Below, piece after piece: positions 5,101 to 61,560 of a DNA stretch of 64,000 nt. The position numbers and the translations under genes were made by a program. The notes under the pieces are model-generated. The model did no database searches. It had not been told where the DNA came from and saw only the letters and a list, made by a program, of their open reading frames with translations. This stretch comes from Mobula hypostoma (taxonomy: Eukaryota). Position 1 is the stretch's first letter. The number at the start of each line of letters is the position of its first letter. The stretch spans positions 16,244,001-16,308,000 of the forward strand of contig NC_086097.1 in assembly GCF_963921235.1 (NCBI RefSeq), in the 5' to 3' direction.

Positions 5101-7430
5101 TAAGTCATCCCCATAATTGCCAAGGTCTTTTTCCCTGGTGAATACTGAAGAAAAGTATTCATTAAGTACCTCTGCTACCTCCTCCGACTCTATGCACACA
5201 TTTCCACTATCGCACCCGACTGGTCCTATTCTCACATGGCTCATCCTCTTGCTCTTCACATACTTGTAGAATGCCTTGGGGTTTTCCTTAATCCTGCTCA
5301 CTAAGGCCTTCTCATGGCCCCTTCTGGCTCTCCTAGTTCTATTCTTAAGCTCCTTCCTAGCAACCTTGTAATTTTCTAGAGCTTTAATCGTGCCTAGTTT
5401 CTTGAACCTTTCATAAGCTTTTCTTCTTAACTAGGATTTTTACATACTTTGTACACCATGGTTCTTTAACTCTACCATCCTTTCCCTGCCTCAATGGAAC
5501 ATACCTATGCAGAACTCCATGCAAATATTCCCTGAACATTTGCTACATTTCTGCTATGGCTTTCCCTGAGAACATCTGCTCCCAAGTTCCTGCCTAATAG
5601 CATCATATTTCCGCCTACCCCAACTAAATGTTTTCCCGAATTGTCTGCTCCTATCCCTCTCCAGCACTATGGTGAAGGAGATAAGAGTTGTGGTCACTAC
5701 CTCCAAAATGCTCTCCCACCGAGAGATCTGACACCTGACCAGGTTCATTTCGCAATACCAGACCAAGTACAGCCTCTCCTCTAGTTGGCTTATCTACACA
5801 CTATGTCAGGAAACCTTCCTGAACACACCTAACAAGCTCCACCCCATCTAAACCCCTTGCACTAAGGAGATGCCAACGTTAGGAAAGTTAAAATCTCCTA
5901 TCACAACAACCCTATTATTATTGCACCGTTCCAGAATCTGCCTCCCTATCTGCTCCTCAATATCCCTGTTACTATTGGGGGATCTATATTAAAAAAAACA
6001 CCCGGTGGAGTTATTGCTCCTTTACTGTTTCTGACTTCCACCCACACTGACTCAGTAGACAGTCCCTCCATGACTTCCTCCTTTTCTGCAGCCGTGATAC
6101 TATCCCTAATTAGCAATTCCATACCCCCACCTCTCTTGCTTACCTCTCTGTTCTTTTTGAAACATCTAAAGCCCGGCACACTCAGCAGTCATTCCTGCTC
6201 CTGAGACATCCAAGTCTCTGTAATGGCCACAATGTCACAGTTCCACATATTAATCCATATTCTAAGTTCATCTGCCTTGTTTATGATACTCCTTGCATTA
6301 AAATAGACACATTTCAAATCATCAGGCTGAGTACATCTTTGCCTTTCCTACCTCACAAATTCCCTACAAGCTGTCTCTACTTGTGCTCCAACCTTCCCAT
6401 CCTCTGCCTCTTCACCTTGGTTCCCATCCCCCTGCAAATCCTGTTTAAACCCTCCCCAATAGCATTAGCAAACCTCCCCACCAGGATATTGGTTCCCCTC
6501 AGACCCAAGTGCAACCCGTCCTTTTTGTGCAGCTCACACCTGCCCCAGAAGAGGTCCCAATGATCCAAAAATCTGAATCTCTACCCCGTTCCAATCCTTC
6601 AGCCACACATTTATCCTCCACCTTATTCTATTCCTATACTCACTGTGGCATGGCATAGGCAGCAATCCCAAGATTATTAGCTTTGAGGTCCTGCTTCTCA
6701 GCTTCCTTCCTGACTCCCTGTATTCTGCTTTCAGGACCTCCACCTGTTTTCTACCTATGCTGTTGGTACCAATATGTACCATGACTTCTGGCTGCTCACC
6801 CTCCCATTTCAGGATATTGTGGACACACTCAGAGCAACATGAACCTTGGCACTGGGGAGACAAACTACCATTCTTCTTTTTTGTGTCCGGGGAGCCACCT
6901 ATCTGTCCCCCTAACTATAGAGTCCCCTATTACTGCTGCCCTCCTCTTCCATTCCCTACCCTTCTGAGCCACAGGGCCAGACTCAGTACCACTGTTGCTT
7001 CCCCTAGGTAGGTCGTCCCCTCCAACAGCACTAAAAATAGAGTACTTTGTTAAGGGGGACTGCCACAGGGGTGGTCGCTACTACCTGACACCCCTCCCTT
7101 CCCTCACCTGACAGTCACCCACTTATCTGTCTCCTGTGGCCCTGGGGTGACTGCTGCCTTTAGCTCCTGTCTATCACCTCCTCACTCTCCCCAACAAGCC
7201 AAAGATCATCAAGTTGCGGCTCTGTTCCCTAACTCTGTCTCTAAGGAGCTGCAGCTCGATGCACCTGGCGCAGATGTGGCCATCATGGAGGATGGAAGTC
7301 TCCCGGACATCCCACATCTGAGACCCAGAACAGAAAACTAGCCTCACAGTCATACCCAATTTACTAATACGCCAAGCCCCACGAGATGCTCCTCTTTTAA
7401 ACTTTTCTCCCCGACCTGTGCGAAGCCCTC
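5101..7430 (-). mobile_element. CR1 LINE 5' half (ORF1 zinc finger/SGNH esterase plus APE endonuclease), 3'-truncated
   Basis: Minus ORFs: CSGSQMWDV..CARCIELQLL (ORF1 zinc finger), VHIGTN, DGLHL, KRGGGMELLIRDS..ESVWVEVRN (APE), IKENPKAFYKY. Confidence 0.9.
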
Positions 7431-8522: not shown

Positions 8523-8715
8523 ACAACAGGAATTCTGCAGATGCTGGAAATTGAAGCAGCACACATCAAAGTTGCTGGTGAACGCAGCAGGCCAGGCAGC
8601 ATCTCTAGGAAGATTAACTAACTGAAGAAATCTCTTACTAACTCTTCCTTCAGTTAGTCCTGACGAAGGGTCTCGGCCTGAAACGTCGACTGTACCTCTT
8701 CCTAGAGATGCTGCC
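8523..8715. mobile_element. Penelope pLTR-derived fold-back insertion carrying a minimal hammerhead ribozyme, inside a CR1 3' tail (8385-8745)
   Basis: Flanked by TGGCCTAcTTCTGCTT (8507-8522) and TGGCCTAaTTCTGCTT (8716-8731); 24-bp inverted arms. Confidence 0.8.
8656..8691 (+). ncRNA. Minimal type-I hammerhead ribozyme motif
   Basis: AGTC-CTGACGA-AGG(GTCTCGG)CCT-GAAA-CGTC-GACT: stem I AGTC/GACT, CUGANGA and GAAA core, GUC cleavage triplet, palindromic ACGT stem III as in Penelope HHRs. Confidence 0.75.
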
Positions 8716-9014
8716 TGGCCTAATTCTGCTTTATGTCTTATGGCCTTAATTAAATCAATAATTCACTCCCACTGTTTATTATGGCACTGCGCTGTGATGA
8801 AAACTAGCTGTTAATGAATAGGACTAAAAACTAAACAAATGTACCAAATTCAAATTATAACTTGTACTGTCAGTCCTGGGTATGACTCTAAACTGCAACC
8901 GGTGACGAGGCTCTGATTGGGGACTTTCAGAGCTTTGGGGAAAGTGGAGTTACCCCTTAGTCATTCATTGCTTCCAGGGCCTCTCTGACCTGGAACGGAA
9001 GCACCTGCAAGAGT

Positions 9015-11166
9015 TCCTAACTCTCTAAAGGACTCCTTGGTAGAATCAGCAAAGTCAGTGATTCCTAAAAAAGAAAAAAGCACAAAGAATAAATGGATGA
9101 CAGATGAAATGAAAAATCTGATGGAAGAAAGGAGACGGAAGAAAGCAAATCCAATAGAATATAAGTCCTTAGATAAATAAGTTAAAAGCTTATGTCAAAA
9201 AGCCAAAGAAGAATGGTTAAACCAGGAATGTGAGCAAATAGAAAGAATCCCTATTACTGATCCAAAAAGGTTACATCAATAAATCAAGAATATCACTGGT
9301 AAAAAGCTCCTCTGTTCTTCAGGTGGATGTTTGAAAGCAAAGCACGGTACCATTATCATGGAAAAAGATGAGATTATGAACAGATGGACTGAGTATATTC
9401 AGGAATTGTTTGAAGACGATCGAGGTGAAAAACCAGAAATTCAGAAGAACATTGAAGGTCCAAGTATTTTAAAATCTGAAGTTCGTAATGCAATAAATAA
9501 GATGAAGGAAAGGAAAGGCAGCAGGTCCTGATGAATTAGTAATGGAACAAATTATTGCCCTTGAAGATTATGCAATTGAAAAACTTACTGATTTAATCAA
9601 TGATATTTATGAGACTGGATTAATACCAGAAGAGATGAAAAAAAAAATTCAGTATTTATCACTCTTCCTAAGAAAGCTGGAGTAATAGAATGTAAATTAC
9701 ATAGGACCACAAGTTTAATGAGTCATATCACTAAGATACTTCTAAGAACTTTGATGACAAGAGCTAAAAGTAAGATACAAGCTGAAATAGGTAAAGAACA
9801 ATATGGTTTTGTGAAAGACAAAGGTACAAGAAACGCAATATTGATGTTAAGGATACTATCAGAACAAGCTATTCAATTGCAAAAAGATTTGTTTGTTTTA
9901 TCGACTATACAAAAGCATTTGATAAAGTGAAGCACAATATGTTATTTGAAATATTACAGAAAACTCTAGATCTAGATTCGAAAGATCTCCGCCTAATCAG
10001 AATTCTGTACTGGGAACAAACTGCTGCTGTAAGAATAGTTGGAGAAGTGAATCCATTAACGAAAATCAAGAGAGGCGTTAGACAAGGGTGTGTTTTCTCC
10101 CCTGATTTATTTAATGTGTACAGTGAAACAATATTACAAAAAATAAGACATCTTGGGAATCAAAGTTGGCGGTGAAAACATCAATAATTTCAGATATGCA
10201 GATGACACTCAATTGCAAGTACAGAGGAAGAACTGCAAAACTTAATTGATATAGTTGTTGAAGAAAGTGCAAAAATGGGTCTATATATCAATTGCAAAAA
10301 GACAATGTATGGTGATATCCAAAAAGGAGGATCCTATCTGCGGGCTGAGAATAAACGGTGAAGACATAAAACAAGTACAGAACTTTTGCTACTTAGGAAG
10401 CTGGGTGACATCAGATGGCAGGTGCGACATGGACATCAAAAGAAGAATAGGGATGGCAAAAGACACCTTTACAAGAATGAAGAGTATACTGATCAATACT
10501 AAACTAGGCATGACAACCCGCCTCAGAGTACTGAAATGTTATGTTTATCCAGTTATGTTATATGGCTCAGAATGTTGGATAATATCCAGTAACATGAGGA
10601 AACGAATTGTAGCAGCAGAGGTGTGGTTTTTGAGGAGGATGCAAAGAATATCATGGACAAAACGAATATCTAATGAGGATATTGTGGACAGAGCAAACAC
10701 AAAAAGAGAAATAATGTATGAGATCATGAAAAGGCAACATAACTTCGTTGGACATGTGATTAGGAAAGAGGAGTTAGAATGCACGGTAATTATGGGAAAG
10801 ATTGAAGGGAAGAAAGCAAGAGGAAGACAGACAAATGATGATGGAGACGCAAACAAGAGGAAATCTGCAGATACTGGAATTTCAAGCAACACACACAAAA
10901 GTTGCTGGTGAATGCAGCAGGCCAGGCAGCATCTCTAGGAAGAGGTACAGTCGACGTTTCAGGCCGAGATGTCGACTGTACCTCTTCCTAGAGATGCTGC
11001 CTGGCCTGCTGCATTCACCAGCAACTTTGATGTGTGTTGCTTGATGCTGGAGACAGCAGCCAGAGAACTGGAAATGAATACCAATGAATTGATCCACTTG
11101 ACCCGAAACAGGAGTGTGTGGGCCATGGCAGTCAAAGCTCAAACTGGGCACGGCACCTGATGATGA
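9015..11166 (+). mobile_element. RTE-clade LINE, 5'-truncated, frameshifted RT
   Basis: EQYGFVKDKGTRNAI, RGVRQGCVFSPDLFNVY, (R)YADD at ~10194, YLGS..DIKRRIGMAK..GKIEGKKARGR; (TGA)n tail at ~11158-11166. Confidence 0.9.
10849..11041. mobile_element. Penelope pLTR-derived fold-back insertion in the RTE ORF (hammerhead core deleted)
   Basis: TSD TGATGaTGGAGAC (10836-10848) / TGATGcTGGAGAC (11042-11054); ~75-bp inverted arms. Confidence 0.8.
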
Positions 11167-25029: not shown

Positions 25030-25350
25030 ACGTGGATGGAAGATTTACAAATATAGAGCCTTTCATGTCAACTTCAAGCTGTGCAATGTGTCAATGAAGT
25101 ACTGAAGTGTTGAAAACTTTTGTGTCCCACCTTTTCCCACAAACAGCACTACCTTATGTGTTCTGATAACATTGGTTGTGAGATAACTATTGGCCAGGTC
25201 CCTGGGGATCAGACACCTGCTCTCCTTGAAAGCCATGGGACTTTTTTCACCCCAGCTGAAATAACAGAGTGTAGGTCTAACATCTTACCTGAAAGACAGC
25301 TACTGTACTCCTTCAGTCCTGAAGCATCAGCTGTGATCTCAACTTCGTGA
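25030..25350 (-). mobile_element. Deu-domain SINE-like remnant
   Basis: tattggccaggtccctgggg..cctgctctccttgaaagccatggga..ctaacatcttacctgaaagacagc resembles shark SacSINE1-type sequence (recalled, not aligned). Confidence 0.5.
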
Positions 25351-40633: not shown

Positions 40634-41140
40634 AAACACGAGAAAGTCTGCAGATGCTGGAAATCCAAAGCAACACACACAAAAAGCTGGTGGAACTCAG
40701 CAGATCAGGCAACACCTATGGAAATGAATGACCAGTTGATGTTTCGCGCAGAGACCCTTCACCAGGACTGGAAAGGAAGGGGAAAGATGCCAGAATAAAA
40801 AGGTGGGAGAAGAGGAAAGAGGCTAGCTGGAAAGTGATGGGTGAAGCCATGTGGGTAGGAAAGGTAAAGGACCGGACAGGAAGGAACCTGATAGAGTAGG
40901 CCATGGGAGAAAGGGAAGGAGGGGACCCAAAGGGAGGTAGTAGACAGATGATAGAAGGTAGGAGAACAGAGTGGGAAATAGGAGAGGGGAGGGAGGGATT
41001 TTTTTTAAACTGGAACATGCCATCAGGTTGGAGGCCTCCCAGATAGAATACAAGATGTTGCTCCTCTAAGCTGAGGGCAGCCTCATCTTCACACAAGAGT
41101 CGTCCATGGACATGTCAGAACAGGAATGGGAATTGGAATT
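40634..41140 (-). mobile_element. Penelope-like (Neptune-type) 3' fragment: GIY-YIG C-terminus plus pLTR with degenerate hammerhead
   Basis: ORF 40716-41096 begins ..EAALSLEEQHLVFYLGGLQPDGM.. followed by a pyrimidine-rich UTR and CTGGTGA..GAAAC; links the short pLTR repeats to an autonomous PLE. Confidence 0.8.
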
Positions 41141-41257
41141 AAAATTGGTATTTCTTAGCAACACACAATGTGACCATAAGAAGAGATAAGAGCAGAATTA
41201 GGCCATTCAGCTCATTGAGTCTGCTCCGCCATTCCATTATGGCTGATTAATTTTCTT

Positions 41258-44200
41258 TGGCAGTTGAACGAGGCATGACAGCGCAAGCGCGTGTAAGTCG
41301 GACCGTGAGGCAGTGGGAGTATTTAAAAGACAGCAGATTAACAGAGCGGGGTCAGAGTAGAGGGGGGACAGAATAGGAAGGCTTTGGCTCCTGAGGCTTC
41401 GGTGAGCAGAGGCTGAGGAAGAGCTTCACTCCGAGTGAGGCAAGGCCAGGTAAGTTCCTTTAATAAATCTAATTACCTTAGGAGTAAGTAATGGAAGCAG
41501 CAGTTAGGGCAGTTGAGTGCTCCGTTTGCAGGATGTGGGAAGTCAGGGCGAGCACAATCGTCCCTGATGACTACACCTGTGAAAGGTGCATCCAGCTGCA
41601 GCTCCTAACAAACCGAGTTAGGGAACTGGAGCTGGAGCTGGATGAACTTCGGATCATTCGGGAGGCTGAGGCAGAAATAGAGAAGAGTTACAGGGAACAT
41701 ACATCAAAGTTTCTGGTGAACGCAGCAGGCCAAGCAGCATCTATAGGAAGAGGCGCAGTCAACGTTTCAGGCCGAGACCCTTCGTCAGGACTAACTGAAG
41801 GACTAGTCCTGACGAAGGGTCTCGGCCTGAAACGTCGACTGCACCTCTTCCTATAGATGCTGCTTGGCCTGCTGCGTTCACCAGCAACTTTGATGTATGT
41901 TGCTTGAATTTCCAGCATCTGCAGAATTCCTGTTGTTTAAGAGTTACAGGGAGATAGTCACCCCTAAGAGTCAGGAGACAGGTAGCTGGGTGACTGTCAG
42001 GAGAGAGAAGGGGAATAGACAGAATGAGTAGAGCACCCCTGTGGCCGTTCCTATCAATAATAAGTACATCATTTTGGATGCTGTTGATGGGGACAGCCTA
42101 CCAGGGACAAGTTGTAGTGGTTGCGTCTCTGGCACTGAGATGGGACCCTCAACTCAGAAGGGAAGGAGGGAAAAGAGGAGAGCAGTAGTGATAGGGGATT
42201 CGATAGTTAGGGGAACAGATAAGAGGTTCTGTGGAAGAGATCGAGAATCCCGGATGGTCTGTTGCCTCCCTGGTGCCAAGGTCCAAGCTATCTCAGATCG
42301 AGTCCTCGGTATTCTCAAGAGGGAGAGTGAGCAGCCGGATGTTGTGGTCCATGTAGGGACCAATAACGTGGGTAGGAAGAGTGAGGAGGTCCTGAAAGGA
42401 GAGTTTAGAGGATTAGGAGCCAAGTTAAAGGACAGGACCTCCAGGATAGCAATCTCAGGATTGCTACCAGTGCCACGTGCAGGCGGGTTTGGAAATAATA
42501 AGATAGCGCAGATAAACACGTGGCTGAAGACATGGTGCAGGAGGGGGGGCTTCAGATTTATAGATAATTGGGCAGTTTTCCAGGGAAGGTGGGACCTGTT
42601 CCGGTGGGACGGTCTACATCTGAACTGGAGGGGGACAAATATTCTTGCAGGTAGATTTGCTAGAGAGGCTCCGGTGGATTTAAACTAGATACGTGGGTGG
42701 AGGGGAACCAGAGTGTAGAAACAGATGTAGGGAAGAAGGAAGAAAAAGAAAATAGTAAAGTTGTTTGCACCATTAGTGATAAACAGAGAGTAAGAGGTGG
42801 AAAATTTCTTAAGTGCATTTATTTTAATGCTAGGAGCATTATAAGAAAGGTGGAGGAGCTTAAGGCATGGATTGATACCTGGAAGTATGATGTGGTAGCT
42901 ATTAGTGAAACATGGTTACAGGAGGGGTGTGATTGGCAACTAAATATTCCTGGATTTAATTGCTTCAGGCATGATAGAATGGGAGGGACAAGAGGGGGAG
43001 GTGTTGCATTGCTTGTCAGAGAAAATATTACAGCGGTGCTCTGGCAGGATAGATTAGAGGGCTCATCTAAGGAAGATATTTGGGTGGAATTGAGGAATGA
43101 GAAAGGTGCAGTAACTCTTATGGGGATGTATTAGAGACCCACCAAATGGGGAGCGAGAAGTGGAGGAGCAAATTTGTAAGGAGATAGTAGATATTTGTAG
43201 TAAGCACAAGGTTGTGATTGTGGGAGATTTTAATTTTCCACACATAGACTGGGAAGCCCATACTGTAAAAGGGCTGGATGGTTTGGAGTTTGTAAAATGT
43301 GTGCAGGATACTTTTTTGCAGCAATACATAGAGATACCAACTAGAGAAGAAGTAGTGTTGGGTCTCCTGTTAGGGAATGAGATAGGTCAGGTGACAGAGG
43401 TTTGTGTTGGGGAGCACTTCGGGTCCAGTGATCACAATGCTATTAGTTTCAATATAATTATGGAGAAGGATAGGTCTGGACCCAGGGTTAAGATTTTTGA
43501 TTGGAGAAGGGCTAACTTTGAGGAGATGCGAAATGATTTAGAAGGAGTGGATTGGGACAATTTTGTTTTATGGGAAGAATGTAATAGAGAAATGGAGGTC
43601 ATTTAAAGGTGAAATTTTGGGAGTACAGAACCTTTATGTTCCTGTTAGGATGAAAGGAAAGGTTAAAAGTTTGAGAGAGCCATGGTTTTCAAGGGATATT
43701 GGAAACTTGGTTTGGAAAAGGAGAGATATCTACAATAAATATAGGCAGCATGGAGTAAATGAGGTGCTCGAGGAATATAAAGAATGTAAAAAGAAGAAAG
43801 AAATTGAAAAAGCTAAAAGAAGATACAAGGTTGCTTTGGCAAGTAAGGTGAAAATAAATCCCAAGGGTTTCTACCGTTATATTAATAGCAAAAGGATAGT
43901 GAGGGATAAAATTGGTCCCTTAGAGAATCAGAGTGGACAGCTATGTGTGGAGCCAAAAGAGATGGGGGAGATTCTGAACAATTTCTTTTCTTCAGTATTC
44001 ACTAAAGAGAAGGATATTGAATTGGGTAAGATAAGAGAAACAGGTAGGGAAGTTATGGAAACTATGATGATTAAAGAAGAGGAAGTACTGGAGTCTTTAA
44101 GGAACATAAAAATGGATAAGTCTCCGGGTCCTGACAGGATATTCCCTAGGACCTTGAGGGAAGTTAGTGTGGAAATAGCAGGGGCTCTGAAAGAAGTATT

Positions 44201-45685
44201 TCAAATGTCATTAGAAACGGGGACGGTGCTGGAGGATTGGCGTATTGCTCATGTTGTTCCATTGTTTAAAAAGGGTTCTAAAAGTAAACCTAGCAATTAT
44301 TGGCCTGTGAGTTTGACGTCAGTGGTGGGTAAATTGATGGAAAGTATTCTTAGAGATGGTATATATAATTATCTGGATAGACAGGGTCTGATTAGGAACA
44401 GTCAACATAGATTTGTGCGTGGAGGGTCATGTTTGACAAATCTTATTGAATTTTTTGAAGAGGTTACTAGGAAAGTTGACAAGGGTAAAGCAGTGGATGT
44501 TGTCTATATAGACTTCAGTAAGGCCTTTGACAAGGTCCCACACAGAAGGTTGGTTAGGAAGGTTCAATCGTTAGGTATTAATATTGAAGTAGTAAAACGG
44601 ATTCAGTAGTGGCTGGATGGGAGACGCCAGAGAGTGGTAGTGGATAACTGTTTGTCAGATTGGAGGTCAGTGACTAGTGGTGTGCCTCAGGAATCTGTAC
44701 TGGGTCCAATGTTATTTGTCATATACATTAATGATCTGGATGATGGGGTGGTAAATTGGATTAGTAAGTATGCAGATGATACTATGATAGGTGGCACTGT
44801 GGATAATGAAGTAGGTTTTCAAAACTTGCAGAGAGATTTAGGCCAGTTAGAAGAGTGGGCTGAAAGATCGCTGATGGTGTTTAATGCTGACAAGTGTGAG
44901 GTGCTACATTTTGGTAGGACTAATCAAAGTAGGACATACATGGTAAATGGTAGGGCATTGAAGAATGCAGTAGAACAGAGAGATCTAGGAATAATGGTGC
45001 ATAGTTCCCCAAAGGTGGAATCTCATGTGGATAGGGTGGTGAAGAAAGCTTTTGGTATGCTGGCCTTTATAAATCAGAGCATTGAGTACAGGAGTTGGGA
45101 TGTAATGTTGAAATTGTACAAGGCATCGGTGAGGCCAAATTTGGAGTATTGTGTACAGTTTTGGTCACCGAATTATAGGAAAGATGTTAACAAAGTAGAG
45201 AGAGTACAGAGAAGATTTACTAGGATGTTACCTGGGTTTCATCACCTAAGTTACAGAGAACTGTTGAACAAGTTAGGTCTTTATTCTTTGGAGTGTAGAA
45301 GGTTGAGGGGAGACTTGACAGAAGTATTTAAAATTATGAGGGGGATTGATAGAGTTGATGTGGATAGGTTTTTTCCATTGAGAATGGGGGAGATTCAAAC
45401 AAGAGGACATGAGTTGAGAGTTAAAGGGCAAAAGTTTAGGGGGTAACATGAGGGGGAACTTCTTTACTCAGAGAGTGGTAGCTGTGTGGAACGAGCTTCC
45501 AGCAGAAGTGGTTGAGGCAGGTTCAATGTTGTCATTTAAAGTTAAATTGGACAACTATATGGACAGGAAAGGAATGGAGGGTTATGGGGTGAGTGCAGGT
45601 TGGTGGGACTAGGTGAGACTAAGAGTTTGGCACAGACTAGAAGGGCTGAAATGGCTAGTTTCCATGCTGTAATTGTTATATGGTT
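41258..45685 (+). mobile_element. Near-full-length CR1 LINE (ORF1 zinc finger/leucine zipper/SGNH esterase 41491-42688; ORF2 APE+RT ~42820-45610), a few disabling mutations
   Basis: CSVCRMW..CERC, GDS, VGTN, DGLH; CIYFNARS, ISETW, VGDFN, GSSDHN; GSCLTNL, DFSKAFDKV, KYADD; CpG-bearing 5' UTR. Confidence 0.95.
41697..41938. mobile_element. Penelope-derived fold-back mini-element with hammerheads on both strands
   Basis: Perfect 14-bp TSD AAGAGTTACAGGGA (41683-41696, 41939-41952); 97-bp arms 41697-41793/41804-41900 with 3 mismatches; HHR motifs at 41805-41840 (+) and 41757-41792 (-). Confidence 0.9.
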
Positions 45686-46920: not shown

Positions 46921-49583
46921 TAAAGGGACATCCTTGTATTCTGATGCTGTGCCCATTGGCCCTAAACCACATCCCTCCCCACCACTACTGGAAATAGCCT
47001 ATGCCCACTCTATCTTGACCTTTTGATATTCAATAGGTTTTAATGAGATCCCCCCCCCCACCCCACCCCATTCTTCTAAACTTCGGTGAATTCAGGCTCA
47101 GAGCCATAAAACGTTCATCACACAACAACCATTTCATTCCCAGGATCATTCTCGTGAATATCCTATACACCCTCTCCAATGCCTGCACATCCTTCCCTAG
47201 ACAAGGACCTCAAAACAATACTCCAAGAACAGACTGATTAACATCTTATCGAGCATCTGCTGGAGGAACTCAGCACGATGAGTAGTAACTACTGGGGGGA
47301 GTGGGGGGGTGGAAGAGGGAAGATGAAGGGATCTTCCATGTTTTGGGTCAAAACCCTATATCAGAGGGATGAGAGAGGAGCTCAAGATGAGTAGTAGTGC
47401 TGGTGAAAACTTGCAATGAGGAAGAATATGCAGCTGTGATAACAAGTTTTGGTAAGAACAGGATCAAAGAGTCAGAGAGCAATGATGATTGTGATAGGTA
47501 GGCTGGATCCCTTTCCTCTGGAGCTTTGAAGAATGACGGGTGATCTCACTGAAATACAAATTTCTTCCAGGGTTCAACAGGGTATTATAGACTGAACGTT
47601 CCTCATGACTGATGAGTTGAATCTCAGAATAAGGAGTAGATCATTTAGAACTGGAATGAAGAGCAATGTCTTCACTCAAAGACTGACATACAGTAGCTCC
47701 AGTATTCCTTATCCAAAGGTTATTTTATTATCGAAGCATGTATGCAGAATACAACTGAGATTTGTCTTCTCCAGATAGCCATAAAATGCAGAAAATCATA
47801 GTAGCTGAAAGACATTAATTCTCTCCCCCACACAAAAAGAGAAAAACAACTCCAAATTCCAAACCCTCTCTCGCACAAAAATTAACAGATCACCCAAACC
47901 CCCAGTCCACCAATCAGCAACAAAAAAATGGGTGAGAACATGAAAAAAAACATAGAACTAAAAGAGGCAAATATGAACTACAGTCCAATCCATAAATCTT
48001 AGCATTTCGATAACATCTCAGAGAGTATCAGGAGCCAGCTGCCCCTCCAAGGGAAGCGATCCTAGAGAGTAGGGGAGTCTCATTCAATGATTGTGTTTAA
48101 ACAGATTTACAGATACTAGCAGAATCCAAGGAAATGGGAATAGAGCAGAAAAATGACACAGAGTTGGATCAGGCATGACCCTGATGAACGGCAGAGTGGC
48201 TCGAGGGGTCAAATAGCCTCCTGAATCTGAATCAGGTTTATCGTCACTGACGTTAAGTGAGCTGCTCCTATTTCTCAATCTTTGATTGAAATCTAGATGG
48301 TAAAGGGGGCCATAAATCAAGGTACTGAGTACACGAGTTGGGAATTTCTGTTGAAGGTGTATAACTCATTAGAGGTTTCAAATTTGGAGTATTGTGTTCA
48401 GTTCCGGTCACCGGCCTGCAGGAAAGATATCAATATGAATGAAAGAGTACAGAGAAAATTTATAAGGATGTTGCTGGAATTTAAGGACCTGAGTTACCAG
48501 GAAAGTTTGAATAGGTTAAAGGTTTAAAGTAAATTTATTATCAAAGGACATGCTGTTATGTCACCATATACTGAGATTTTTTTTGCAAGCTTCATACTAA
48601 ATACAGATAAATAAAATCGATGAAAAAAATGCTCTCAAGATGGACACACAACCAATATGCAAAAGACAACAAACTGCAAATACAAAAGCAAATTAAGTAA
48701 TAATAGATAAATAAACAATACATAGAGAATGAGATGAAATGTCCTTGAGTGTGACCACATAGGTTTGTGGGACCAGTTCAGTGTTGGGGTGAGTGAAGTT
48801 ATCCCCTTTGGTTCAAGAGCTCAAGAGGTAATAACTGTTCCTGCACCTGGTGGTGTGGGTCCCGAGGCTCCAGAACCTCCTTCCCCATAGCAGCGGCGAC
48901 AAGAGAGCACGGCTTGGATGGTGGTGTCCCTGATGATGGGCAGTGCTCCCTTGTAGATTTGATCACTGGTTGCGAGGGCTTTACTCACGATGAACTTTAT
49001 TCACTGGAGTGTAAGAGAATGAGGGGAGATTTAGTAGAGGTGTAAACATTTTGACGGCTATAGATAGGGTTAATACAAGCATGCATTTTCCCCATAGAGT
49101 TTGCGTGAAATTAGAACTAGAGGGTGAAATTAAAAATTAGAAGGGTGAAAAGTACAACACTTAGGAACGCAAAGGGGAAACCGCTTCACTCGGGGTGGTG
49201 GAAATATAGGATGAAACTGCCAAAGGAAGTGCTGGATGCAGGTTTGATTTCAACATTTAGGAGAAGTTGTGTTAGAGTGGAATAGTAATGGGCAGGAGGG
49301 TATGGAGGGCCATAGTCCGGGTACGGGATGATGGAACTAGGCAAAAGTAACAGTTCATGATGGACTAAGTGAGTGCTGCTTCCGAGCTGTAGTGTTCTAT
49401 GGTTTTATAATATCGCCACTCTGCAGAGCTTTGAATATTTCCTCTGTTACGACTTGACTCTTGCTTCACAAACTTGGGCGCTACCCAAATTACCTTTCGT
49501 CCCAGCCTCATCCTGTTCTTTCCAAGCCAGTTAGAAGAGATGGACAATTATCACCTTACCTACACCAAATTTAAAAATATGAA

Positions 49584-49685
49584 GCAACACACATCAAAGT
49601 TGCTGGTGAACGCAGCAGGCCAGGCAGCATCTATAGGAAGAGGCGCAGTCGACGTTTCAGGCCGAGACCCTTCGTCAGGACATGA
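49584..49685. mobile_element. Short Penelope pLTR insertion with intact minus-strand hammerhead core (49647-49681)
   Basis: 12-bp TSD TAAAAATATGAA (49572-49583, 49686-49697); reverse complement GTC-CTGACGA-AGGGTCTCGGCCT-GAAACGTC-GAC. Confidence 0.8.
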
Positions 49686-49839
49686 TAAAAATATGAAACT
49701 TGATGGAAGGCCCAGGGGTACTTGGACAGGCTACATCTTATTCATTCCCATGATTACCTAAGAAAAAAAGCTCTGCCAACTCTTCCAGGCTAGTTAATCT
49801 CAACCCTTAATTTATTTAAAACATTCCGCAATGTAAGAG

Positions 49840-50560
49840 TATGCCAAAGGCTAGTTCACATTTCAGGCGTGCCTCATATCGAGAGCCCATGCTCGATAGC
49901 CCTATTCCCGACTCGTCACTCGGGCGCTCACAGGTAACCAAGTTGGGCAAAAACTTCCCGGAGCCGCTGGGCGCGACCCTCCGTGACGTCACGGCGTCGC
50001 AGGCGGAGCCCGGCGGTGGCCGCGCCCATTTCGCACTCGCTCCGCCAACGCTGTTGCGAATGAAGAAAATAATGAAAATTAAAACATCTAAAAATGCCAG
50101 TTAAAATATCGGTGTATTTTACCTCTTCCTCACGGGCATGTTTAACCTGCCAGAAATCCCCCAGGAGCTTGCACTTTGCTGAGTCCGGCAACGCAACCAA
50201 GAAGCAGTTTCGCTGACAGGCGTCCGTCCACAAGTCGGAACTTCCAGGTTCGGTTACTAGTTGTGTAATGCCTGAATATGCTACTAGTTACGATGGCGAA
50301 ACCCAAGCAACCTCTGCCTCCTAAAGGCGTTTTCTTTGCGTAAAGCACACTGACCACTATGCCGTTGGGATGCACTCATTTAAATAAAGTGGCCGCTGTT
50401 CCAACACTGCACTCTCCTACATGAAAGGATTATTCATCCGCCAGGCTTTAACCGACTTAGAAAGCAACGCAGAAAATATAGGAACCACTTGGTCCAGTTT
50501 CTATCCACGTCCACCGACTTTTGCCTCGTGCAGTTTCACGTCCTCTAATAGTTTCACGTG
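49840..50560. promoter_or_regulatory. CpG-island-like putative promoter with perfect CRE palindrome
   Basis: Dense CpG/GC core 49900-50060 not recognisable as a repeat; CCGTGACGTCACGG at 49981-49994; CACGTG near 50555. Confidence 0.6.
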
Positions 50561-50775
50561 ACTGAAATCTACACATTTTTTTCCCCGAGATAAAGTTCTG
50601 GATGGTGATTGAGGAACTTTAACTTGTTGCCACTCTAAACCAAGGCACGTTGACCAGATGCAGCATTTTAACTGCAGATAAGCCAGTTTAGGCAAACTAG
50701 GTGAGCACGACCAGAAACTTATAGTTTAGAGTCATTGTTATAAAGCACAGAAACAAGAGATTTTGTAGGTGCTGG

Positions 50776-51010
50776 TGTGGTAAACCATGTATATATGTTG
50801 TAACTGGGTTACCTGTCTGGACACACCCCTCTGCTGACTGCCCCTGTGGCTCCTCCCACAGAGATCTGTATAAAGGTGTTCTCCTTGCCCCCCCCCCTCA
50901 GTCTGGGGGGGGGCAGACACTCACTGTGGAGGTTGTATTGTACAGCGAATTCAGTATTTGTTCAGTATTTTACCAAACCTCAGTCTTTTGGTGTATTTGA
51001 AGGTGTTTCA
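50776..51010 (+). mobile_element. Short solo LTR (235 bp)
   Basis: TG...CA termini, 5-bp TSD GCTGG (50771-50775, 51011-51015), TATAAA at 50869-50874; interrupts a Penelope pLTR fragment. Confidence 0.75.
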
Positions 51011-51836
51011 GCTGGAAATCCAGAGCAAACACACACACACCACCATTCGACTCAACTAGTCCATACGGACCAAGATGTCTGTCTGAGTGAGTGCCATTTG
51101 TCTATGTTTGGTCCATATCCTTCCTATCCATGTACCAATCTATTCAAATGTCTTGTTAAGTACTGTGATTTTGTGTCTCTACAATTTGGTCATATACCCA
51201 TCACCTTCCTTGAGCAGATGGCCCCTTTAAAATTTTCACCTCTCACCTTGGATCGACGGAAACCAATTTTAGATGTCTTTGGGCAAAAACAAATATGATG
51301 ATCCACCTTAGCTAAACCCCTCATGATTTTATTAATCTGTATAAGGTTTACCTCTTGGCCTCCTACTCATGAAAAAAAGTCCCAGCCTATCTGGCCTCGC
51401 CTTATAACTCAAGTTCTCCAGTCCCCGTTACACTCTTGCAAATCTTTTCTGCACCTTTTACAGTGTAATGGCAAGCTTCCTATAAACTATCAATACTCCC
51501 AAGTGTGACACACACAAAATGCTGGAAGACTCAGCAGGTTAGGCAGCTAAATTGATGTTCTGGGCCGAGACTTTTCATCAGGACTGGAAAGGAAATCCAG
51601 GTTCTTCTGCTCTTCCAGCATTTTGTGTGTGTTACTCCGGATCTCCAGCATCTGCAGAATCTCTTCCAAATGTGGTCTCACCGATGTCTTGTAGAGGGAT
51701 AGATAGATCCACACTTATCAAGTCTCTATTCTAATCCCATTTTACCAGTATTTGGTCTGAAGCCAAATTATATCCAATTGCAAACCAGTGAATACAATAA
51801 AGTTAAGGTTTGTTTAATGCACAAATATGGTGAATG

Positions 51837-52389: not shown

Positions 52390-55300
52390 GAAGCTCGGAG
52401 ACAGTGCGAGAGGGAGGAGAGGCAGGTGATACAGAAGGGACGCGCTCAGACCGATGGTTTGAGATGTGTCTATTTTAATGCAAGGAGTATTGTGAACAAA
52501 GTGAATGAGCTTAGAGCGTGGATCAGTACTTTGAGCTATGATGTTGTGGCCATTACAGAGACTTGGATGGCTCAGGGGCAGGAATGATTACTTCAAGTGC
52601 CAGGCTTTAAATGTTTCAGAAAGGATGGGGGTGGGGGGGGGGAGGCAGACGAGGTGGGGCTGTGGCACTGTTGATTAGGGATAGTGTCACAGTTGCTGAA
52701 AAGGAGGAAGTCATGGAGGGATTGTCTACGGATTCTCTGTGGGTGGAAGTTAGGAACAGGAAGGGGTCAATAACTCTACTAGGTGTTTTTTAGACCACCC
52801 AATAGTAACAGGGACATCGAGGAGCAGAAAGGGAGACAGATTCTGGAAAGGTGTAATAATAACAAGGTTGTTGTGGTGGGAGATTTTAATTTCCCAAATA
52901 TGGATTGACATCTCCCTAGAGCAAGGGGTTTAGATGGGGTGGAGTTTGTTAGGTGTGTTCAGGAAGGTTTCTTGACACAATATGTACAAACCCCATTTCC
53001 AGAAAAGTTGGGATATTTTCCAAAATGCAATAAAAACAAAAATCTGTGATATGTTAATTCACGTGAACCTTTATTTAACTGACAAAAGTACAAAGAAAAG
53101 ATTTTCAATAGTTTTACTGACCAACTTAATTGTATTTTGTAAACATACACAAATTTAGAATTTGATGGCTGCAACACACTCAACAAAAGTTGGGACAGAG
53201 GCATGTTTACCACTGTGTTACATCACCTTTCCTTTTAATAACACTTTTTAATCATTTTGGAACTGAGGATACTAATTGTAGTAGATTTGCAATTGAAAAT
53301 TTTGTCCATTCTTGCTTGATAATAAGACTTCAGCTGCTCAACAGTCCGTGGTCTCAGTTGTCTGATTCTCCTCTTCATGATGCGCCATACATTTTCAATA
53401 GGAGATAGATCTGGACTGGCAGCAGGCCAGTCAAGCACACACACTCTGTGTCTACAAAGCCACGCTGTTGTAGCCCGTGCAGAATGTGGTCTGGCATTGT
53501 CCTGCTGAAATAAGCATGGACGTCCCGGGAAGAGATGTCGCCTTGATGGCAACAGATTATCTCTCTAAAATCCTAATATACACCTCAGAGTCAATGGTAC
53601 CTTCACATACATGCAACTCACCCATGCCGTGGGCACTGATGCACCCCCATACCATCACAGATGCTGGCTTTTGCACCTTTCGCTGATAACAATCTGGATG
53701 GTCGTTTTCATCTTTGGCACGGAGAACTCGACGCCTGTTTTTTCCCAAAACTAGCTGAAATGTGGACTCATCTGACCACAGCACACGGTTCCACAGTCTT
53801 TCGGTCCACCTGAGATGAGTTCGCCGGCATTTCTGCATAGAGTTGATGTATGGCTTCCTCCTTGTGTAATACAGTTTCAAGTTGCATTTCTAGATGCAGT
53901 GACGGACTGTGTTGAGCAACAATGGTTTTCCGAAATACTCCCAAGCCCAGGTGGCTATAATTGTCACAGTAGCATGACGGTTTCTTAGGCAGTGCCGCCT
54001 GAGGGCTCGAAGATCACGCGATTCAACAGTGGTTTCCGACCTTGCCCTTTACGCACTGAGATGTCTCTGAATTCTCTGAATCTTTTCACAATATTATGTA
54101 CTGTAGATGTCGAAAGACCTAAATTCTCTGCAATCTTGCGTTGAGAAATGTTCCTTTTGAACTAACAATTCTGTCACAAATTTTGGCACAAAGGGGTGAG
54201 CCATGACCCATCCTTGCTTGCAAAGACTGAGCCTTTGATGGACGCTACTTTTATACCCAGTCATGATACCTCACCTGCTACCAATTAGCCTGCTTAATGT
54301 GGAGTCTTCCAAACTGGTGTTACTTGAATATTCTGTGCACTTTTCAATCTTATTTTAACTCTGTCCCAACTTTTGTTGAGTGTGTTGCAGCCATCAAATT
54401 CTAAATTTGTGTACATTTACAAAATACAATTAAGTTGGTCAGTAAAACTATTGAAAATCTTTTCTTTGTACTTTAGTCAGTTAAATAAAGGTTCACGTAA
54501 ATTAACATCTCACAGATTTTTGTTTTTCTTGCATTTTGGAAAATATCCCAACTTTTCTGGAAATGGGGTTTGTAGATAAGCCTACAAGAGGCTGTACTTG
54601 CTCTGGTATTGGGAAATTAACCTGGTCAGGTGTCAGGTCAGTGGAAGAACATTTTGGAGACGGGATCACAATTCGATCTCCTTTACCATAGCATAGGGAT
54701 GGGAACAGACAAGTCAGGGAAGTATTTAATTGGAGTAAGGGGAAACATGAGGCTATCAGGCCTGAACTTGGAAGCATAAATTGTGAACAGATGTTCTCAC
54801 GGAAATGTACAGAAGAAATGTGGCGAATGTTCAGGGGATATTTGCGTGGAGTTCTGCATAGGTACATTCCAATGAGACAGGGAAAGGATGGTAGGGTACA
54901 GGAACAGTGGTGTACGAAGGCTGTTGTAAATCTAGTCAAGAAGAAAAGCTTACGAAAGGTTCAAAAACTACGTAATAATAGAGATGAGGAAGTGGAGGGA
55001 TGTGTTAGTAAATTTGCTGATGACGCAAAGGTTGGGGGCGTTGTGGATAGTGTGGAGAGCTGTCAGAGGTTACAGCGGGACATTGATAGGATGCAAAACT
55101 GGGCTGAGAAGTGGCAGATGGAGTTCAACCCAGATAAGTGTGAAGTGGTTCATTTTGGTAAGTCAAATATGATGGCAGAATATAGTATTATTGATAAGAC
55201 TCTTGGCAGTGTGGAGGATCAGAGGGATCTTGGGCTCCAAGTCCATAGGACACTCAAAGCTGCTGCGCAGGTTGACACTGTGGTTGAGAAGGCATACGGT

Positions 55301-58630: not shown

Positions 58631-58765
58631 TTAAATGTCAAGCAGCAGCACGCGAGGGTCTTCAACTGCAGATTTAATTTTTCGGAGGAAAAATACTGCT
58701 TCTCTTCCATCAATCAAGCGGTGGTCATAGGTTAGGGCCACATACATCATGGGGCGGATCACCAC
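58631..58765 (-). CDS. DLST: DLST terminal coding exon: [44 protein letters not shown]
   Basis: Acceptor ttattacag|GTG; catalytic DHRLIDG motif; TAA at 58633-58631. Confidence 0.97.
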
Positions 58766-58986
58766 CTGTAATAAGAGGAAAACAAGCATGAGAAGTTGTA
58801 TCTAAATCAATTAACAGCGTACTTAGCCAACACTCAATCTCCAGTGCAGGCCAGTTCTCCTACACATTTAGAACCAATGTAGAATCACACCACTTTCCAC
58901 AAGAGTGTACCAGGACAAGGCATTTAGTTAAAAACCCACTGAAGCCTCTCAAGTCTAAAAGGAAATGAGATCAAAATAAAAGCAGG

Positions 58987-59310
58987 AGGGCACAGTAGCG
59001 CATCACTTTACAGTATCAGCAATCGCTGATCAGGGTTCAATTCCTGCCACTGTAAGGAGTTTGTATGTTCTCTTTGTGACTGTGTGGGTTTCCTCTGGGT
59101 GTTATGGTTTCGTCCCACATTACAATGATGTGCAGTTAATGTTAGGGTTAGTGACTTTGTGGGCATGCCGTGTTGCCACTGAAAGTGTGTTGACACTTCG
59201 AACTACTCCCAGCACAAGCTTTGGACTGTGTTGAAAACAATGCGAAAAACGATGCATTCCTCTATATGTTTCAATGTATGTGTGCCAAATGAAGCTAATC
59301 TTTATCTTTC
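58987..59310 (+). mobile_element. V-SINE with an alternative 3' tail, in the last DLST intron
   Basis: B box gggttcaattcc, V domain, tail gatgcattcctctatatgtttcaatgtatgtgtgccaaatgaagctaatct, which differs from the 31722 copy. Confidence 0.75.
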
Positions 59311-59440
59311 TTACAAATATCCTAAAAAATACATTATACCTGTAATATCAAGTTGCAATTCATTTTGTAACACGAGCAGCAATACTTGAAATCCATCCAA
59401 AACCATTCGACTGATAAACTTTAATGATGTTATTACTTAC

Positions 59441-59608
59441 CTGACCCTTGATTGCAACTGGCCTCTCAAAGATTCCATGCATACCCAGGATGGCAGACTG
59501 GGGTGGGTTGATAATTGGTGTGCCAAACATCGAGCCGAACACTCCACCATTACTGATTGTGAAAGTACCTCCATCCATGTCTTCTATAGCCAACTCATTC
59601 TTACGTGC
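59441..59608 (-). CDS. DLST: DLST exon: [56 protein letters not shown]
   Basis: Acceptor ctag|GCA, donor CAG|gtaagt; 168 nt; highly conserved [29 protein letters not shown]. Confidence 0.97.
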
Positions 59609-60774
59609 CTAGACCAGTGCAAAATGTGCCTGTTAGGTTGTTCAATTGCGCCAAATTCTTTTCTCGTCTTATCTAATCTCACTTTGAATCACTCAAGGTT
59701 CTAACAGTGTAATAGAATTCATCCATGATTTTCTCCCCCTCCATACAAAAACTTAGTTCAACCATGAACTGTTTCAGCTGCTTCCATCTGGCAAACGGTA
59801 CCACAGCATTAAAGCTAGGACCAACAGGCTACAGGACAGCTTCTTTCTACAAGCCATCAGATTTATAAATTCACATGTCTGTACATTGCGATGAATCATA
59901 GCGAAAGGATTTTTACTCCCTCACGTTGTGGGATGAATGCAAAATTTAAGGAAATTCAAATTCCTATCTGATGTTTTAAAACTTATTTCAATTCTGTAAA
60001 AAGTACGTTACTCCTTAGTAAGGATCTCGTTAGAAGATGATTACTTCTAGCTGAAACATTTCATTGTCCTTCCAAAAGGGCTTTGATTTGTTATTTCCAA
60101 TTCCCACTTATTCAAAAGACCAAAGTATCATGGCTTACACTGAAGCAATTCAGACACAAAAATCAAACTTTTAAAGCATCTAATATTTTCTGGAAACTTA
60201 GTCAGGGAACAAGAGTTAATTTTCACACCTGGGAAGCAGAAGTTAAATAACAAAATCAAAATATTATGAATTTTACATTTCTCAGATATAAAAGAAAAAA
60301 GCAAAATGAAGAGTTGATTGGAAATATAGATGGGAATTTGGGGAGAGTAGGCTTCAGGGAAATTAGTGGGGGGAAAGGGGCTTTTTCTGTGTGTCAGAAT
60401 AGACTCAGTTGGTTAAATGGCCTACTGTGTTGTAAGGAAATATGCAATTCGGAAGTATGTTCTCTGGTTCCTGATACTTCCAGTGAGAACAAATGTTTAC
60501 ACCCCTTTGTCAGGACAGCTCTGAATCCTCTCCAGACAAAGAACAACCACCTTAGCGTCTTCAGTCTTATGCAAGTTCCTTATTCGCTACTTCTTGCCTG
60601 CACCCTTGTCAAGATTTTGATGTGTATGCATGGTTCCCAGAAATGAGCTCAGTGGTTGAATTTGTGTTTCATGAAGGTGTCGTATGATGATTTGGAGATG
60701 GTGTAAATGGGATAAATGGGGTCAGTGCCTGATAGTACTTCAACACAAACAAGCAATAATGTTTTGACAATCAC

Positions 60775-60858
60775 CTTGTCTCCTAGCTCATTGATTGCTT
60801 TCTCAATATCAGCATAGTTCATTGTTTCAACATTTCGGATTACAGGAACCACCAGACC
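60775..60858 (-). CDS. DLST: DLST (dihydrolipoamide succinyltransferase, E2 of OGDH complex) exon: [28 protein letters not shown]
   Basis: Minus-strand acceptor ccatag|GGT, donor AAG|gtgatt; 84 nt; GLVVPVIRN motif of the 2-oxoacid dehydrogenase acyltransferase domain. Confidence 0.95.
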
Positions 60859-61155: not shown

Positions 61156-61560
61156 TAACACAAAATGCTGGAGGAACTCAGGTCAGGCAGCATCCATGGA
61201 AATGAATAAACAGTCAATGTTTCGGGCTAAGACCCTTCATCAGGATAAACAGGTAGAATCAGTAAGATCAGGACTGATCTGAATTTGCTTCAACTCCATT
61301 GTACTGCCTTGCAAAAGAGGGGAAGACGCACAAAACGCCGGAGGAACTCAGCAGGTCGGGCAGCATCCGTGGAAATGAACAGTCAACGTTTCGGGCTGAG
61401 ACCCTTGGTCAGGACTGTAGAGGGAGGGGGCAGGGACCCTATAAAGAAGGTGGGAGGAGGGTGGGAAGGAGAAGGCAGGTAGGTGCCAGGTGAAAAACCA
61501 GTAAGGGGCAAGATGAAGGGGTGGGGGAGGGGAAGCAGGGAGGGGATAGGCAAGAGGGGA
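61156..61560 (-). mobile_element. Two Penelope pLTR fragments with degenerate hammerheads in a DLST intron
   Basis: cacaaaatgctggaggaactcag.. heads; reverse complements CTGATGA..GAAACATTGAC (61212-61245) and CTGACCA..GAAACGTTGAC (61381-61416). Confidence 0.75.

Follow-up and report, generated by a model that had tools for sequence, protein, structure and literature searches.

A short fold-back insert with one hammerhead motif per strand in Mobula hypostoma is very probably a heavily 5′-truncated Penelope-like element insertion

The 242-bp insert at positions 41697–41938 of the window (the whole 64-kb stretch of Mobula hypostoma DNA that was analysed) is very probably a heavily 5′-truncated, dead-on-arrival insertion of an endonuclease-bearing Penelope-like element (PLE), probably of the Neptune/Nematis type. 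It consists of two pieces of a PLE terminal repeat in a head-to-head layout, with a single tail and a 14-bp target-site duplication, and the same plan recurs elsewhere in the window with differing breakpoints. We have little doubt that the insert is real, young, the product of a single event, and an ordinary member of a kind of PLE insertion that has been described before.

The coordinates proposed in an earlier note on this DNA proved to be exact, and its measurements of the insert, the duplication, the arms, the loop length, the tail and the single hammerhead motif per strand were all reproduced (Table 1). The two arms (41697–41793 and 41804–41900) differ at 3 of 97 positions (41712/41885, 41754/41843 and 41761/41836), two of these sites lying in CpG context, and are spaced by 10 nt. 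The insert RNA was predicted to fold at –195.3 kcal/mol (z = –28), a stability that none of 200 shuffles equalled. On the minus strand, 41794–41802 corresponds to the upstream repeat sequence of the family, as found in the copy at 8627–8721, so that 9 of the 10 "loop" bases are native repeat and the "loop" is not a spacer. The arms are thus staggered, the tail-less arm reaching 9 nt further upstream and the tailed arm 38 nt further downstream, which means that neither is a plain copy of the other. The identical direct repeats abutting both ends of the insert gave a duplication score of 14, against a maximum of 9 among 300 random position pairs searched identically, in support of the earlier claim that the unit was inserted as one event.

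Table 1. Positions of the insert, its parts and its immediate surroundings in the window
Feature	Position	Strand	Remarks
Neighbouring PLE 3′ end, older subfamily	40634–41149	–	ORF end (41149–41016), terminal repeat, mutated hammerhead, tail
Host LINE, broken	41488–45446	+	ORF1 with GDSL esterase domain, endonuclease, RT in several frames
Target-site duplication, left copy	41683–41696	+	14 bp; single diverged copy in second LINE copy
Inverted, tail-less, 5′-truncated PLE terminal-repeat piece	41697–41802	–	sense on minus strand
Minimal type-I hammerhead motif	41757–41792	–	cleavage triplet GUU (41761 is a CpG-type change)
Junction	41799–41809		41799–41805 repeats 41787–41793; perfect 10-bp palindrome 41800–41809
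Direct, 5′-truncated PLE terminal-repeat piece	41804–41900	+	sense on plus strand
Minimal type-I hammerhead motif	41805–41840	+	predicted cut after 41836 (GUC)
Stem I of plus-strand motif	41805–41808 with 41837–41840	+	
Core of plus-strand motif	41809–41815 and 41829–41832	+	
Stem II of plus-strand motif	41817–41828	+	
Palindrome of plus-strand motif	41832–41835	+	no loop 3
PLE tail	41901–41938	+	38 bp; 41938 is the family-wide 3′ end
Target-site duplication, right copy	41939–41952	+	14 bp

The insertion site is within ORF1 of a broken LINE, presumably of the CR1/L2 type, and the insert together with its duplication (256 bp) disrupts the ORF1 frame. A second copy of this LINE on the minus strand (7080–7260) contains the diverged target word once and represents the empty site. 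Pfam scans of 294 of the 305 non-repeat reading frames in the window revealed no host exons near the insert; host exons appeared only at 58.6–60.9 kb, so nothing indicates an intronic locus. Specifically, a gene for a 2-oxoacid dehydrogenase E2 (acyltransferase) contributes three exons at 58634–60858 (minus strand), which extend to the end of the Pfam model. An AAA_7 match at 25066–25284 was rejected as a host exon, being weak and below the cutoff. Elsewhere in the window, 49001–51000 is CpG-enriched (observed/expected 0.67–0.68) and possibly a promoter, and 52981–54578 is a presumably Tc1/mariner-like DNA transposon, whose 220-bp terminal inverted repeats match at 97% and whose DDE transposase is broken. 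Nested inverted repeats at 1749–2328 (183-bp arms at 95%, with a repeated 40-bp word) are probably a cluster of non-autonomous DNA transposons.

The origin from a PLE, as suggested earlier, was supported via the neighbouring element on the minus strand. The insert matches the terminal repeat of this neighbour (40634–40769) with 76% identity over 138 bp (E = 4e-19), and the approximately 45 codons of the neighbour's ORF end that are still recognisable match protein P0004 with 66% identity over 32 aa. This relationship fixes the orientation of the insert, in which 41804–41938 is the sense 3′ end with tail and 41697–41802 the inverted, tail-less piece. In P0004, an RT, a CX2-5CxxC linker and a GIY-YIG domain with two internal cysteines can be read by eye, and its look-alikes in the Atlas carry RVT_1, HTH_animal and GIY-YIG. 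The Neptune/Nematis type is defined in PMC8557442 by a CX2-5CxxC linker motif upstream of GIY-YIG and two cysteines inside GIY-YIG, and judging from the motifs of P0004 the parent of the insert would probably be of this type. The connection of the insert to an ORF with RT and, at the C-terminus, GIY-YIG runs through an older subfamily: being only 76% identical, the neighbour is a relative of the insert and not its source. The earlier proposal that the copy at 40634–41140 had mobilised the insert was not upheld, given the older subfamily of this copy and an ORF end reduced to about 45 recognisable codons. The closest copy in the window is the single-armed one at 49582–49681 (97%), and no autonomous parent of the young subfamily to which the insert belongs was seen. 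Neither the neighbour's ORF end nor P0004 had a match in Pfam; the PDB returned none for P0004, and a word-based protein search none for the 42-aa ORF end of the neighbour. P0002, the top of five HMMER hits, was discarded: it is an unrelated repeat protein, and tblastn gave no match between it and the window. In the predicted gene models P0003, P0005 and P0006, the PLE ORF end appears fused to unrelated host proteins (VKOR, RecQ5 and ATP synthase c); these fusions are likely to be gene-prediction errors, with exonisation as the alternative.

The repeat of the insert occurs at 10 loci in the window, six of them single-armed and four of them fold-backs (the insert, 8523–8721, 10851–11044 and 51505–51664). 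All four fold-backs are arranged head-to-head, with exactly one tailed arm each. Expressed in insert coordinates and in the above order, the tailed arms start at 41804, 41846, 41820 and approximately 41881, and the tail-less arms end at 41901, 41870, 41907 and approximately 41900. In three of the four, the arms are staggered, with the tail-less arm reaching further upstream than the tailed one and neither containing the other; in the fold-back at 10851–11044, the tail-less arm lies wholly within the tailed arm. The 3′ ends of the window copies fall mostly into two classes, near 41901–41907 and 41936–41938. Duplications of 12–16 bp that exceeded all 300 controls were found at five of the eight loci tested (all but those at 40634 and 61323) and not at the other three, indicating that 14 bp is normal for this repeat family. 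As to their settings, the fold-back at 8523–8721 lies inside the 3′ end of another repeat, has a 16-bp duplication with one mismatch, and bears at its junction a short antisense piece resembling the loop of the insert. The fold-back at 10851–11044 is located in the RT region of a LINE, and that at 51505–51664 belongs to the older subfamily.

The family was also examined in four sequencing runs, whose contigs were compared with 41794–42300. The best of these runs, X1, shares 55% of the words of the stretch and may derive from another species. Its summed depth amounted to 6.0–9.7 million over arm and tail and to 0.03–0.26 million over the LINE, showing that the repeat is very abundant, with depth being no measure of copy number. 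In the four runs, 502, 449, 182 and 67 contigs end at 41938 and leave into unlike flanks, which identifies 41938 as the 3′ end of the family. Joints were read from 15 of 195, loose ends from 24 of 1801 rows, and variants from 40 of 133 rows. At 41864 and 41897, both arms of the insert share a minority letter, with 69–98% (41864) and 81–97% (41897) of the depth in the four runs showing another letter, so that one source element gave rise to both arms. The many loose ends at 41805–41806 were considered as a sign of a truncation hotspot at the hammerhead edge, but the compared stretch does not contain the native upstream sequence, so that every longer copy also ends there and would look the same. 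The listed joints from X1 and X5 include tail-to-tail joints of a tail-less with a tailed end, 41904–41905 with 41938–41939 (7 + 3 contigs in X1, 5 + 1 in X5), as well as some head-to-tail joints that lead back to 41804–41809, one of them from the predicted cut site at 41836. In run X11, which we guess to be RNA, depth is roughly twice as high over 41862–41929 as over 41811–41861 (X1 is roughly flat); this step does not coincide with the predicted cut, depth of contigs is not a good guide, and the run was not counted as evidence on expression. Pattern scans yielded no loci in viral contigs and none in metagenome contigs.

These features agree well with what has been described for PLEs. An adjacent inverted, 5′-truncated copy and a 30–40-bp tail at one end are listed as typical features (PMC8557442), and rotifer PLEs were reported with an inverted pLTR, a 31-bp tail, 8–10-bp duplications and junction palindromes (PMC3846280). 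Like the endonuclease-positive insertions covered by these two sources, the insert combines head-to-head inverted terminal-repeat pieces and a 30–40-bp tail on one arm with a junction palindrome, a target-site duplication and another retrotransposon as target. It differs from them in having no ORF at all, in its 14-bp duplication (8–10 bp in the rotifer examples), and in that each of its two arms breaks off within 10 nt of the 5′ edge of the hammerhead. Moreover, pairs of minimal hammerheads (min-HHR) on opposite strands, 100–700 bp apart, have been attributed to truncated PLEs (PMC4209133). The first of the two alternatives put forward in the earlier note, a highly truncated PLE insertion, is thus upheld by the pieces, the tail, the duplication and the recurring fold-backs. 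A literature search on sharks and rays gave fish-biology papers only.

How such an insertion arose can be sketched as follows. An active copy located elsewhere in the genome would have supplied the protein that made the insertion in one event, with its endonuclease nicking both strands 14 bp apart. The first nick would prime cDNA from the start site at the tail end (41938) and the second from a tail-less start site (approximately 41900), and both cDNAs would halt just past the hammerhead. Short microhomologies and a few templated bases would then join them, leaving the 10-bp palindrome. Given a PLE insertion, we regard priming from both nicks as the probable route, by a modest measure, and the staggered arms fit it. 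It would resemble the twin priming of L1 and microhomology-mediated end joining. A search of the literature for twin priming with Penelope turned up no such reading of PLE insertions, although the search was thin and we do not claim that it is unpublished. For PAc (Poseidon of Anolis carolinensis), PMC11167929 describes a protein that in vitro cleaves both strands and extends them, and a pair of start sites between which the tail lies; with PAc the insert would share such a pair of internal start sites around a tail located downstream of the hammerhead, as well as the cutting and extension of both strands. PAc belongs to the Penelope/Poseidon clade, whereas P0004, the relative identified here, carries the additional cysteine motif in the linker that Neptune/Nematis have. 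No description of inverted products of PAc was found in the available portion of PMC11167929.

Within the same PLE identity, a single cDNA or an antisense template might instead have copied itself back at a short palindrome, with trimming or slippage producing the stagger. Such self-priming has been proposed from junction palindromes (PMC3846280), and would be in line with the perfect palindrome at the insert junction, with the minority letters common to both arms, and with the nested copy at 10851–11044, which could be a simple self-copy. It accounts less readily for the 9 upstream bases present only in the tail-less arm and the 38 bases present only in the tailed one, or for the stagger in three of the four fold-backs. 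We therefore consider self-priming with trimming a fair rival for the route, although a tentative one that we would not expect to be the correct one.

With regard to the hammerheads, the earlier note had reported minimal type-I motifs, one per strand, and this could be corroborated: the CTGACGA...GAAACGT(C/T) motif occurs exactly once on each strand of the insert, and none of the 11 scored core positions (boxes CUGANGA, GAAA and UH) is changed in either arm. The bare count of CTGANGA words (59 against 44 expected, with 1 of 100 shuffles as high) was set aside as too weak a signal. With positions numbered according to PMC4209133 and to general hammerhead numbering, the motif resembles the min-HHR of that source in being of type I, with a short helix I, an extra base after position 9 (A at 41816, between 9 and 10.1), a palindromic 15.2–16.2 (41832–41835), no loop 3, and close pairs on opposite strands. 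Unlike min-HHR, it has a helix II of approximately 4 bp (7–8 bp in the schistosome families), a U at 11.1, and GUU in the minus-strand copy. The G10.1–C11.1 pair is thereby lost, position 41828 being T in each of four young arms and C in each of five older copies; a G-U or shifted A-U pair possibly takes its place. Searching Rfam covariance models, a check of the type suggested earlier, gave five matches at E up to 5, none of them to a hammerhead family, which is not surprising for a motif that lacks helix III, and the miRNA matches obtained were below gathering scores and only reflected the hairpin.

Upstream of the hammerhead, a pyrimidine tract followed by AG directly before stem I was seen at 8627–8660 (plus strand) and at 40770–40800, 61417–61440 and 51580–51597 (all minus strand), these four being all other window copies that extend upstream of the hammerhead; a branch-point-like word is present in the young copy as well. 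In sequence, this resembles a 3′ splice site located at the 5′ edge of the hammerhead, where one has been reported for Drosophila Penelope (PMC4209133). Several arms in the window start at the equivalents of 41804–41807. The predicted cut (41837) coincides with none of the arm starts in the window, the closest of which is at 41834.

Several results bear on whether the motif could act in the insert. In isolation, the motif of the plus strand forms stems I and II, albeit with a fold no better than that of shuffles (z = –0.33). In the context of the insert, predicted folding indicates that the hammerhead would cost 60.4 kcal/mol compared to the hairpin, and the probability of stem I drops from 0.70–0.76 to 0.0, in agreement with the earlier claim that a transcript reading through the unit would form a duplex that could mask the ribozyme. 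Since a read-through RNA has one sense motif, no dimer can form in cis, and for min-HHR no self-cleavage was reported for a monomer and low activity for dimers (PMC4209133). Core conservation relative to the flanks, also raised in the earlier note, was not observed, as 7 of 55 core cells differ in five older copies compared to 37 of 363 cells outside (P = 0.64), in a small sample in which one old copy is possibly misaligned by an insertion; in four young arms, the corresponding numbers are 0 of 44 and 15 of 296. These comparisons point to neutral decay of the hammerhead cores after insertion. With one motif per strand, burial in the hairpin, and old cores decaying like their flanks, ribozyme function in the insert seems unlikely, and the hammerhead is most likely a passenger from the terminal repeat of the parent that would be inactive here.

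The second alternative of the earlier note, a retrozyme-like, self-propagating non-autonomous fold-back mini-element that moves as a 242-bp unit, fared worse, and we consider it very unlikely. The insert is a clean unit with a perfect duplication, it retains the tail region, which is the start site for PLE proteins (PMC11167929), and non-autonomous PLE derivatives do exist (PMC8557442; bioRxiv 10.64898/2026.07.22.740005). Like animal non-LTR retrozymes (PMC7229834; bioRxiv 10.64898/2026.07.22.740005), it is short, non-coding and PLE-related, with a type I hammerhead. Retrozymes, however, are defined by tandem units, and have head-to-tail repeats, mostly canonical motifs and circular RNA according to the same two sources, whereas the insert is head-to-head with a single minimal motif on each of its opposite strands, and so lacks head-to-tail units on the same strand. 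Moreover, its arm and loop breakpoints are matched by none of the three other fold-backs at the scale of the window, an outcome that the earlier note itself had named as speaking against a self-propagating family (breakpoint diversity being judged from the four window fold-backs and 15 of 195 joints from the runs). The loose-end consensus before 41804 is the native upstream repeat and not the loop of the insert in four of four runs (agreement 0.53–0.61), and the predicted cost of the hammerhead fold likewise argues against such a unit. In a variant of this scenario, a hairpin RNA with masked hammerhead and free single-stranded tail would be re-inserted by the PLE protein with the same arms and junction, yet too rarely to recur in the 64-kb window or among the few joints listed; we attach just as little probability to it.

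Slightly less probable still is an artefact of the assembly, or a palindrome that arose once the insertion had taken place, whether by a fold-back chimera or by a later duplication. Fold-back chimeras do occur in long-read data, and the insert junction is crossed by none of the 32 contig pieces listed from the runs, the best of which has the 55% of shared words given above. Against this stand the three sites at which the arms differ, two of them in CpG context, the perfect duplication abutting both ends, the stagger of the arms, and the three other loci of the same plan with older divergence. Retention by the host, as a double-stranded RNA or a ribozyme switch, appears more doubtful again: read-through RNA of either strand is predicted to form a very stable 97-bp duplex, but the site lies within a broken LINE, with no host exon nearby among the 294 of 305 reading frames scanned, and a switch is at odds with the divergence of the older cores. 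The earlier note's idea that such a duplex could feed Dicer or ADAR would be a possibility at most. Least credible of all, and already largely refuted, is a MITE or other fold-back DNA transposon, which would explain a short, non-coding sequence with long inverted arms and a duplication but not the asymmetric ends (the 38-bp tail), the single arm at 6 of 10 loci, the 12–16-bp range of duplications, or the derivation from the terminal repeat of an RT/GIY-YIG element; a literature search on MITE-like PLE derivatives gave general reviews and methods papers only.

As a truncated PLE insertion, this single locus carries little weight, being one of a great many remnants left by a Penelope-like family that has amplified. 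The origin of the inverted structures of PLEs is nevertheless treated as an open question in PMC8557442 (section 15), and young, short fold-backs in which the duplication is clear, a single tail is present and the arms are staggered provide a mechanistic record that bears on two-ended priming versus self-priming. If fold-backs were as common elsewhere as in this window (4 of 10 loci), they would constitute a large potential source of double-stranded RNA in the genome.
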